A DNA stretch of 64,000 nucleotides. Source: a virus. Below are positions 56,380-61,126 of this stretch, piece by piece. The position numbers and the translations under genes were made by a program. The stretch is taken from positions 100,429-164,428 of the IMG/VR virus record IMGVR_UViG_3300032236_000718; one strand, written 5' to 3'. Each line of letters opens with the position of its first letter. Position 1 is the first letter of the stretch. The notes beneath the pieces are model-generated. The model was not told where the DNA came from and ran no database searches. It saw only the letters and a list, made by a program, of their open reading frames with translations.

Positions 56380-56387
56380 TATAAATA
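56380..56387 (+). promoter_or_regulatory. late promoter TATAAATA
   Basis: Exact consensus; predicted +1 near the ATG at 56393. Confidence 0.7.
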
Positions 56388-56392
56388 AAACT

Positions 56393-56500
56393 ATGAAACA
56401 CTATACTCAGGAACTACACATGGTACACCAACCGAAACCAATTACAGTCTGCATGCTCGGTAATACCGAATACGCACGCTCATGGGGTAGTACCGCCTAG
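56393..56500 (+). CDS. putative attenuator leader peptide (35 aa)
   Basis: MKHYTQELHMVHQPKPITVCMLGNTEYARSWGSTA*; stop codon lies inside the antiterminator strand. Confidence 0.6.
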   Translation: MKHYTQELHMVHQPKPITVCMLGNTEYARSWGSTA

Positions 56501-56527
56501 TCACATCTCACATTGTTGGGTTTGACT

Positions 56528-56561
56528 AGGGCAGGAAAAAAGATTCCTGCCCTTATTTTTT
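56528..56561 (+). terminator. conditional intrinsic terminator (attenuator 1)
   Basis: AGGGCAGGAA/TTCCTGCCCT stem plus T-run; competing helix 56496-56503/56523-56530. Confidence 0.85.
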
Positions 56562-56564
56562 ATG

Positions 56565-56593
56565 TGTACATAACCTTGATAGTGGTTTATATT
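56565..56593 (+). promoter_or_regulatory. pre-replicative promoter TGTACA-N17-TATATT
   Basis: Predicted +1 near 56600, the 5' end of the large ncRNA. Confidence 0.75.
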
Positions 56594-56599
56594 AAGAAT

Positions 56600-57353
56600 T
56601 CAGGCAGCTCCTCCCTGAGTATAAGAGGAGCCCCTGGCTGGTACTGGCGAAAAACGCAGGTGGTTTCCAGCAGGGCAGAAGAGAGTTATCTCTTCATGGA
56701 TACTACACAGGGTACCGTGCATGGACGCATGTACTAATGGATGATAGGGCCATCTTGCCATCCTAAGACAACCTGATCAATGGCTGAGGAAGGGAAGCAC
56801 CCGACTCCGAAATTCGATTTTATGTAGTATCTTTGAAGAGATAATTGTTGTTTCGCTTATACAGGAGACTAATAGTGCGGAGTAATTAACCGAAACTGTA
56901 AACAAATAGGCTGGTGGAAGGGTGATGTATGAGCACCGCTCGGTCGGGAAGCGGCTGATCCTGAGGTTGGGTTTGATTCCCATGGTTTGTGTATTCTGTA
57001 TAAGCGTAACAACAATTTTGGACGGTATTGGCCAGTACGCTGATATCTGTATTCCCTGGCAGGAGTACGAACGAGGGATGCCAGTCCCTCTAGTAGCCAA
57101 ATAATTAATTCAAGAGACGTGTGGTCTACCACCCCATCGAACCTGTAGACATCTAGCCCTGCACTTATACGCCTGATGATTGCCTGTGATGGCATGAAAC
57201 ACCTCGGTGTCGCGTGGAGAAGCCCAAGCAGGGGAATAACTGGCTTCCTAGGATGGGGAACTTATTGTAGCAGTATGGCACTGCTTGTGAAGCACCTACG
57301 GAGATGGTAGGAATGCAGTCGGGCTTCATGCCGGTCTAACAAAACAAATGCCA
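56600..57353 (+). ncRNA. large, highly structured multi-pseudoknot ncRNA (~755 nt)
   Basis: No credible ORF; many long-range helices (e.g. 56686-56707/56823-56844, 56843-56866/56994-57017, 56600-56605/57171-57176). Confidence 0.75.
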
Positions 57354-57362
57354 AACTATTTT

Positions 57363-57436
57363 GCTGCCTTAGCTCAATGGTAGAGTACTGGATTGTGGCT
57401 CCGGAGACAGTGGTTCGATACCACTAGGCAGTACCA
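57363..57436 (+). tRNA. tRNA-His(GUG), no G-1, A73
   Basis: Cloverleaf, GTG anticodon, encoded CCA. Confidence 0.93.
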
Positions 57437-57439
57437 AAG

Positions 57440-57596
57440 AATTGCAGGTGTGGAAGCCTGTAATTACCTTCCCAGTTGTCCGTATAGCTTGGGGAAGGAT
57501 ATAGTCCGAGGGCGACTAAAGCTCCTCTTTATACGGACGTGACCCTTTGTCCTAAACCTGTCGGCACGTAGATCGACGCTGGAAGGAGTAACCAGC
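57440..57596 (+). ncRNA. structured pseudoknotted ncRNA candidate
   Basis: CCTTCCC/GGGAAGG stem whose loop GTCCGTATA pairs with TATACGGAC (57530-57538). Confidence 0.5.
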
Positions 57597-57608
57597 AATG
57601 AATTTTTT

Positions 57609-57696
57609 GGGGTGGCTGCTCAGATGGCGGATGGGCACCGGACTGTAAATCCGGCACATAGATACGCAGTTGGTTCGAATCCAACCCGCCCCACCA
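57609..57696 (+). tRNA. tRNA-Tyr(GUA)
   Basis: CCGGA-CTGTAAA-TCCGG arm, long variable region, CCA. Confidence 0.9.
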
Positions 57697-57994: not shown

Positions 57995-58023
57995 AAAGAG
58001 GGGCTTAACGGCCCCTCTTTTTT
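57995..58023 (+). terminator. conditional intrinsic terminator (attenuator 2)
   Basis: AAAGAGGGGC-TTAACG-GCCCCTCTTT plus TTT; competing 11 bp helix 57973-57983/58000-58010. Confidence 0.85.
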
Positions 58024-58030
58024 ATTCTGA

Positions 58031-60276: not shown

Positions 60277-60936
60277 ATGGCTAAGATCGGGGTATACAAG
60301 CATCATCCTTACTGTTCCGAAAACAGTGCTTCAGGCATCAGAGATGCTTTGGACCACTTTCATATTTGCCACTACTTCGATGAGACAGACATAACTCTGT
60401 CATTTCTCAAACAATTTGATCTAGTAGTTTTTCCTGGTGGTCTCGGGGATGCAGGCAAGTTTAATGAGATTTTTCATTGGAGAAATGCTGCTATCGTTAA
60501 CGAGTATGTAGAGTCCGGAGGAAAGTATCTTGGAATATGCATGGGTGCTTACTGGGCTGGTTCTAATTATTTTGATATTATCAACGGCATAGATACCGTA
60601 CAATATATCAAGAGACCAAATGCTGACATAACAAGAAGTTACGGCACAGTCGCAGAAGTCGAATGGCTTGGCGATAAAAAAGAGATGTACTTTTATGATG
60701 GTTGTGCTATAATAGGACCTGGAAATTACGACACAATAGCAAAGTATAAGAACGATGATCCTATGGCTGTTATACAGGGAAATGTCGGGCTTATAGGTTG
60801 TCATCCGGAGTCTGCCAAGTACTGGTATGATACATGGTCATATATGCCATCTAAGTGGCACAACAGAGAGCACTACTTCTTATTAAGAGATTTTGTCAGA
60901 AGAATGTTAGGATACTATGATGGAAGTAACATTTGA
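60277..60936 (+). CDS. class I glutamine-amidotransferase-like (BPL-N type) protein
   Basis: FPGG; GGKYLGICMGAY; GCHPE (Cys-His-Glu triad). Confidence 0.8.
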   Translation: MAKIGVYKHHPYCSENSASGIRDALDHFHICHYFDETDITLSFLKQFDLVVFPGGLGDAGKFNEIFHWRNAAIVNEYVESGGKYLGICMGAYWAGSNYFDIINGIDTVQYIKRPNADITRSYGTVAEVEWLGDKKEMYFYDGCAIIGPGNYDTIAKYKNDDPMAVIQGNVGLIGCHPESAKYWYDTWSYMPSKWHNREHYFLLRDFVRRMLGYYDGSNI

Positions 60937-61126
60937 GGATTTATTACTCTGGGAAGGCATTAGCCTTATTGATAGTATGGTTGCAGTTGGATTTGCAAAG
61001 AGTAAGTCTGAGGCACGTAGAATGATAGAGCAGGGTTCTATTAAAATAGACGATATAAAAGTAACTAACCTAAAGGCTGTACTACTGTTCAGCCCAGATA
61101 AGACTAAGCACTGTGTAGTGCATTAA
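60917..61126 (+). CDS. stand-alone S4 RNA-binding domain (TyrRS C-terminal-like)
   Basis: GFAKSKSEARRMIEQGSIKIDDIKV. Confidence 0.78.
   Translation: MMEVTFEDLLLWEGISLIDSMVAVGFAKSKSEARRMIEQGSIKIDDIKVTNLKAVLLFSPDKTKHCVVH

Follow-up and report, generated by a model that had tools for sequence, protein, structure and literature searches.

What is transcribed from a stretch of phage DNA that begins at a promoter, holds no conserved open reading frame and runs straight into a set of tRNA genes: one very large RNA, or several small ones? The stretch in question is 56600-57353 of the window, as the whole 64,000 nucleotides analyzed are called here, which form the end of a virus record of 164,428 bases (IMG/VR IMGVR_UViG_3300032236_000718, positions 100,429-164,428). 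A reading made from the letters alone (hereafter the sequence-only reading) saw a single ornate RNA of 755 nt with long-range helices and several pseudoknots, either a relative of GOLLD and ROOL RNAs or a new class of that kind. Homologues and an Rfam search uphold its description of the stretch as non-coding, structured, pseudoknotted, conserved and uncatalogued. Where it saw one molecule shut by long-range helices, relatives reveal six locally folding modules, and it is very probable indeed that the stretch is a modular array composed of a leader (A), two cassettes (B and C) and three further modules (D, E, and F).

The Phage and Its tRNA Operon

Judged by its major capsid protein, which is 69% identical to that of Stenotrophomonas phage DLP-6 and 64% to that of Pelagibacter phage Mosig, and also Sinorhizobium phage phiM12, the phage is a T4-like myovirus. 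In the genome 28 tRNAs were called, along with a permuted tmRNA (genome 58259-58647, outside the window), and the tRNA-His lacks G-1. From the permuted tmRNA and this tRNA-His, we take the host to be probably alphaproteobacterial. The array forms the non-coding 5′ part of a tRNA operon, whose landmarks are as follows:

56528-56561, + strand: intrinsic terminator that ends the upstream unit and insulates the array
56565-56593, + strand: phage sigma-70-type promoter (-35 TGTACA, 17 nt, -10 TATATT)
57363-57436, + strand: tRNA-His(GUG), the first tRNA
57609-57696, + strand: tRNA-Tyr(GUA)
57995-58026, + strand: first intrinsic terminator 3′ of the promoter

The TGTACA promoter from which the proposed RNA was said to start is a genuine motif, since the same layout (TGTACA, 17 nt, TAnnnT) occurs in 30 copies on the + strand of the genome compared with one or two at other spacings, and we infer a +1 near 56600. 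The region leads into a tRNA array, as had been claimed, and no terminator is found at 57353, the first one downstream of the promoter being that at 57995. Cleavage by RNase P at tRNA-His would define the 3′ end of a 760-nt leader; such a precursor may be what is left of the single-RNA idea. The open reading frames within 56600-57353 are not conserved among relatives. Ahead of the upstream terminator, within 56380-56500, a 35-codon ORF lies downstream of a T4-type late promoter; it keeps its length and several residues in three related contigs (L008, L233, and L238), and probably represents a genuine small gene or a leader peptide. Further downstream, a 69-aa ORF among the tRNA genes (60917-61126) weakly matches the C-terminal part of tyrosyl-tRNA synthetase.

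One RNA or Several?

The single-RNA model has two points in its favor: all 11 of the complementarities it named exist, and the whole region folds with a z of -2.1. Long-range pairing of this kind is, however, about as frequent in shuffled sequence. For 6-, 7-, and 8-mers there are 43, 11, and 4 perfect stems whose strands lie over 150 nt apart, compared with 32.6, 7.7, and 1.9 in shuffles, and the five short long-range pairs of the model are at chance level and unconserved. Homologues refute each of them. The partners of the 56641 and 56670 strands (at 57031 and 57156, respectively) are found in one of 29 complete arrays, namely the window, and those of 57191/57325 occur together in the window only. 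The partners of the two hexamer pairs (56600/57171 and the loop pair 56619/57165) recur in 6/28 and 4/28 arrays, which is about chance for hexamers. The closest relative (L008/L232, with a RegA 99% identical) lacks 56849-57263 and with it the 3′ partner of four of these pairs and the 5′ partner of the fifth. The strands concerned form local pairs instead, with compensatory changes; that at 56670, for example, pairs with 56632. Covarying helices, or the core of a hammerhead ribozyme (57168-57216), compete with three of the pairs; that core overlaps two of them, and the hammerhead, although complete, was missing from the pairing list.

The local pairings on that list fared differently. The hairpin 56607/56625 (GCTCCTC/GAGGAGC) and the T-arm mimic within the second long arm are backed by homologues, as are the long arms 56686-707/56823-844 and 56843-866/56994-57017, which also exceed chance (two observed, compared with any at all in 1/100 shuffles). 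Strong covariation supports the GTCTAC hairpin 57124/57145 and its pseudoknot 57132/57252. The GAGGGA hairpin with its loop pairing to 57056 is local and conserved, with little covariation.

No module matches Rfam 15. The window region gave no family at gathering score, and non-tRNA matches up to E = 10 were all at chance level; the models for group I/II introns, RNase P, tmRNA, HDV-like, twister, and pistol families did not match, and neither hammerhead-free loci of module E nor 13 related array loci contained a non-tRNA family within the array. The region is like GOLLD and ROOL in being a large structured non-coding stretch that adjoins phage tRNAs and has several pseudoknots. It is unlike them in matching no model and in having a shuffled array in place of a conserved long-range architecture or universal domain, and it does not belong with them. 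Comparison thus largely refutes the single-RNA model, which we consider extremely improbable.

The Leader and the Cassettes

The array consists of the following modules, with a seventh (G) on the same transcript beyond the limits originally drawn:

56600-56684, + strand: module A, leader; hairpin 56607-13/56625-31 followed directly by stem 56632-41/56667-75 with an inner hairpin
56686-56844, + strand: module B, cassette; shared 21-22 bp stem 56686-707/56823-844 around a multi-stem cargo
56845-57015, + strand: module C, second stem-bracketed cassette; tRNA-like cargo
57016-57100, + strand: module D, closed three-hairpin RNA with complementary loops 57056-61/57079-84
57117-57258, + strand: module E, pseudo-symmetric double-pseudoknot RNA
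57168-57216, + strand: type I hammerhead, within E
57266-57353, + strand: module F, directly ahead of the first tRNA; closing helix 57276-80/57349-53 and three inner hairpins
57440-57600, + strand: module G, structured RNA between tRNA-His and tRNA-Tyr

Module A shows two-sided changes at 10/20 pairs among 20 distinct homologues, a level reached in 0/500 shuffles and far above that of slid controls. It occupies the slot that boxA has in related arrays. Bacterial rrn operons use boxA to recruit the Nus complex, and their leader-trailer helices are substrates of RNase III (PMC10250234). A boxA-like 12-mer matching alphaproteobacterial rrn leaders lies 29-82 nt ahead of the first arm in all 12 of the A-less arrays first examined; of a larger set, 40 have A only, 22 have boxA only and none has both, while the seven remaining comprise four with a degenerate boxA, one with a divergent A (by eye) and two chance hits. 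The window itself has leader A but lacks boxA. In L009 a cargo 98% identical to that of B stands behind boxA, and leader type therefore switches among close relatives. It is possible, if rather doubtful, that A is an antiterminator doing the job of boxA by another route, perhaps like that of HK022 put (PMC9378689). As with put RNA, A consists of two adjacent stems at the extreme 5′ end of a nascent phage transcript; the likeness is one of layout only, and polymerase binding by A is putative.

Module B has 30 distinct homologues and two-sided changes at 14/42 pairs, including three of the five in a pseudoknot (56749-53/56780-84) that the sequence-only reading did not list. For A and B, fits to SRP, RNase P, and riboswitch RNAs were compared by eye and dropped. 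The cargo of module C has a D-loop-like segment and a T-arm (56968-56982) but no CCA end. Its T-loop is the canonical TTCGA in four of six distinct homologues and degenerate in the window and L217; covariation is weak, the copies being too alike to show much. A bacterial Y RNA was considered for C, which has no Rfam match, and the phage genome contains no TROVE, RtcB, or RNase III gene; Y RNA, RNA-repair, and phage RNase III ideas were ruled out on these grounds. The arms of both B and C exceed 17 bp, the length taken as the mark of an rrn-type bracketing helix.

Module D (folding z -3.1) is mostly invariant, with one covarying pair. Module F has two-sided changes at 5/18 pairs, and module G, with nine distinct homologues, at 9/22; the latter matches nothing in Rfam.

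Exchange of Modules Among Relatives

Scanning viral and metagenome contigs by pattern turned up 70 distinct candidate arrays, of which two are chance hits. Module order was counted in the 52 that extend to a tRNA; these arrays are related to one another and were found by their arm and leader patterns, and the counts are accordingly biased and non-independent. They show 29 different orders, that of the window (A-B-C-D-E-F) occurring once. No module is universal: B is present in 27 arrays, F in 21, D in 17, C in 6, and E in 2. Each array has one to four cassettes of 80-180 nt, closed by an imperfect stem of 21-27 bp across the family whose arms repeat from cassette to cassette. About 85 cassettes share this long stem around at least 11 types of cargo, which are RNAs of 35-130 nt varying in number and type. 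A T-arm is present in 16 of these cassettes and tandem identical hairpins in five.

The closest relative, L008/L232, keeps 56380-56703 at 98%, carries a different cargo in the first stem, returns to the window sequence within the 3′ arm, and continues from there at 57264. The breakpoints of the cargo swap lie within both arms, and C-E were lost at a 5-nt microhomology. By this comparison the modules fold locally and are gained, lost, and exchanged independently, and the arms of the closing stem recur as direct repeats at the points of exchange. T4-type phages are known to shuffle cassettes by way of repeats (Arbiol et al., 2010, PMC2839356). The present arrays resemble those PeSL cassettes in that a T4-like genome exchanges variable modules at stem-loop repeats. 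PeSLs, however, are promoter-terminator units that shuffle protein genes, whereas here the repeats are arms of RNA helices and the cargoes are RNAs within one transcript. A CRISPR-like reading, in which arm-linker-arm hairpins would be the repeats, was rejected because covariation links the two arms on either side of a cargo and not those on either side of a junction.

Might the modules nevertheless stay joined? They could form a modular scaffold in which the long stems remain uncut and act as clamps, holding each domain so that it can fold and be presented, with the hammerhead cut as the only internal break and RNase P releasing the leader. No terminator or RNase P site lies between modules, the cut at tRNA-His would free about 760 nt, and GOLLD likewise varies in its 5′ region and in some cases contains tRNAs (10.1101/2024.12.08.627333). 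However, not one module is common to all 52 arrays; no conserved pairs between modules are found among the arrays compared, and the stems have the lengths of RNase III helices. We therefore regard a lasting scaffold as quite unlikely and favor release of the modules as separate RNAs.

Among GenBank phages no match was found to modules A-D or to another such array, only to E and to the hammerhead; two cultured phages, Microcystis phage Mwe-JY26 and Arthrobacter phage Constance, have E. The literature searched, which excluded most subscription journals, contained no published description of these RNAs.

Module E and Its Hammerhead

Module E was found in 95 distinct copies, spread over unrelated phages and the genomes of bacteria from several phyla; the pattern used for genome contigs was loose, 17/120 stretches proving to be true copies. 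The pairs ranking highest by APC-corrected mutual information over the 95 copies outline four helices (57124-29/57145-50, 57132-38/57252-58, 57157-62/57228-33, and 57219-24/57242-47). Two of these are crossed pseudoknots in which the loop of each half pairs with the tail of the other. The base preceding a conserved CGUG is the same in both halves in 92/95 copies, with or without a hammerhead, the window being an exception, and this identity points to a fold with two-fold pseudo-symmetry. E is without an Rfam model, even where its copies lack the hammerhead, and twister, pistol, and HDV-like fits for its outer part, compared by eye, were dropped. Weak phage matches to the region all fall within 57150-57243.

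The hammerhead occupies the linker of E in 71/95 copies, the other 24 having a linker of 2-21 nt. In the window its full core is present (CUGANGA and GAAA with an NUH triplet, 57173-57211), enclosed by three stems that show covariation: stem I 57168-72/57212-16, core 57173-79, stem II 57181-84/57191-94, GAAA 57196-99, and stem III 57199-202/57207-10, with cleavage predicted after C57211. CUGANGA is conserved in 70/71 homologues and the triplet is GUC in 48 and GUA in 18; stem I is paired in 69 of the 71 and stem III has at least 3 bp in every one. The 10.1-11.1 position closing stem II is U-U in the window and in 17/71 copies, and U10.1-U11.1 is described as a natural and best-tolerated mismatch of hammerheads (Perreault et al., 2011, PMC3088659). 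Folded alone, the hammerhead sequence forms a three-way junction; in E folded alone without pseudoknots, the favored structure breaks it. The ribozyme is likely to be active.

With type I hammerheads of phages and prophages (Perreault et al., 2011; RF00163) it shares the full core, three stems and a GUC site, and its U10.1-U11.1 mismatch is a variant described among them. It differs from RF00163 members in scoring below the Rfam thresholds and in lying inside the linker of an RNA with two pseudoknots, which is itself hammerhead-free in 24/95 copies. Unlike in known hammerheads, the 3′ strand of stem I is also the conserved start of the second half of E. A recent preprint describes a cluster of divergent hammerheads under Rfam thresholds, and gives no detail tying that cluster to E. 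A related U-U hammerhead in a different pseudoknotted frame is seen in Klebsiella phage vB_KoxiM_BaqKoxi (L003:1450-1600), within a 1.5-kb unannotated stretch after the tRNAs.

Theta (HDV-like) ribozymes likewise are self-cleaving RNAs within phage tRNA operons, where they process tRNAs (PMC10879173). The hammerhead belongs to a different ribozyme class and does not abut a tRNA end. Could the modules nonetheless act only in cis, adjusting tRNA output through processing or attenuation, with no part to play as free RNAs? The location at the head of a tRNA operon, a cut that needs no protein, the placing of A at the +1 in the position of boxA, and the theta precedent are all compatible with this. 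The predicted cut, however, is 150 nt from tRNA-His, E lies near tRNAs in only 25/95 copies (its other neighbors are mixed, often packaging and head genes), and regulation would have no need of interchangeable cargoes within one stem. A purely cis-acting role is thus very unlikely.

E is present in just two of the 52 arrays of this clade, and copies 88-91% similar are found in unrelated phages (L116 and L100); it is therefore a portable insert. Such portability, the lack of a fixed gene partner among the neighborhoods of E copies, and the absence of C, D, and E from most relatives are also what would be seen if selfish or near-neutral RNA modules accumulated at a site of frequent recombination downstream of a strong promoter, with the stems doing no more than shielding the tRNA operon. 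No mobility gene is linked to them, however, and the compensatory changes and invariant unpaired bases of A, B, and E indicate selection on structure, which makes an accumulation of passengers improbable. Selected small RNAs, freed from a common transcript, remain the preferred reading.

Proposed Processing and Function

On balance we favor an rRNA-operon-like transcript head that carries a variable array of small RNAs, cut apart by RNase III, the hammerhead, and RNase P, the products being candidate decoys or mimics. Host RNA polymerase would start near 56600 and read through to the tRNAs, with boxA or leader A keeping it from terminating early. Host RNase III would then cut the long closing stems and free the cargoes of B and C, a step that is somewhat likely. 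The hammerhead would cleave after 57211 and split E into its two halves, and RNase P would cut ahead of tRNA-His, freeing the tRNA. The outcome would be a set of stable small RNAs differing from strain to strain, and these may serve as decoys or mimics that counter host defense proteins of the RNA-binding or tRNA-cutting kind.

The resemblance to a bacterial rrn leader extends to the promoter, the long stems around each RNA, the co-transcribed tRNAs, and the boxA-like 12-mer in 22 related arrays. In contrast to an rrn leader, the cargoes are variable, uncatalogued RNAs, the window has leader A in place of boxA, and cutting is here a prediction. The array thus resembles the rrn operon in layout and PeSL shuffling in its exchange, and is a member of neither group.

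A decoy or mimic role is favored because the content turns over between near-identical phages and because the cargoes include tRNA mimics and repeated hairpins. On this anatomy and variability, a counter-defense role is a serious candidate that falls a little short of an even chance. Antisense action on the phage's own genes was set aside, just one 14-nt complement being found. A bolder version pictures an integron-like RNA arsenal of promoter, antiterminating leader, and swappable stem-bracketed decoys or inhibitors, each directed at a different host protein, with E as a new RNA class (a ligand sponge or ribozyme of two-fold pseudo-symmetry) matured by the hammerhead into two pieces; in this full form we think it unlikely.

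Small RNAs in a phage tRNA operon have a counterpart in the stable RNAs C and D of T4, which are located in its tRNA cluster. A function has long been lacking both for the small stable RNAs of phage tRNA clusters and for prophage hammerheads. With variants that differ in the presence or absence of modules, a shared processing stem and a predicted hammerhead cut, the function of both kinds of RNA becomes testable here. What looked like a giant RNA resolves into one operon containing at least seven uncatalogued RNA families, with folds backed by covariation and a clear rule of exchange. If the cargoes are decoys, RNA-based counter-defense would be far wider and more modular than is now known.

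Further RNAs of Related Arrays

The second-commonest cargo, of about 95 nt, is not in the window (L004:1285-1430, - strand, and 23 more copies); it has covarying stems and conserved purine-rich internal loops, and no Rfam match. At the array heads of L215, L217, L236, and L011 the cassette consists of two tandem copies of one small hairpin, the layout of a protein sponge. More recurring modules lie 3′ of the cassettes in L224, L231, L235, and L238, among them a tRNA-like RNA without CCA, and L224 also has a short hairpin RNA in tandem repeat after its cassettes. Outside the array, the tRNA region of L217 (9875-9982, - strand) matches the Rhizobiales sRNA Atu_At1 above the Rfam gathering score, which is possibly the reverse strand of a tRNA-like gene.
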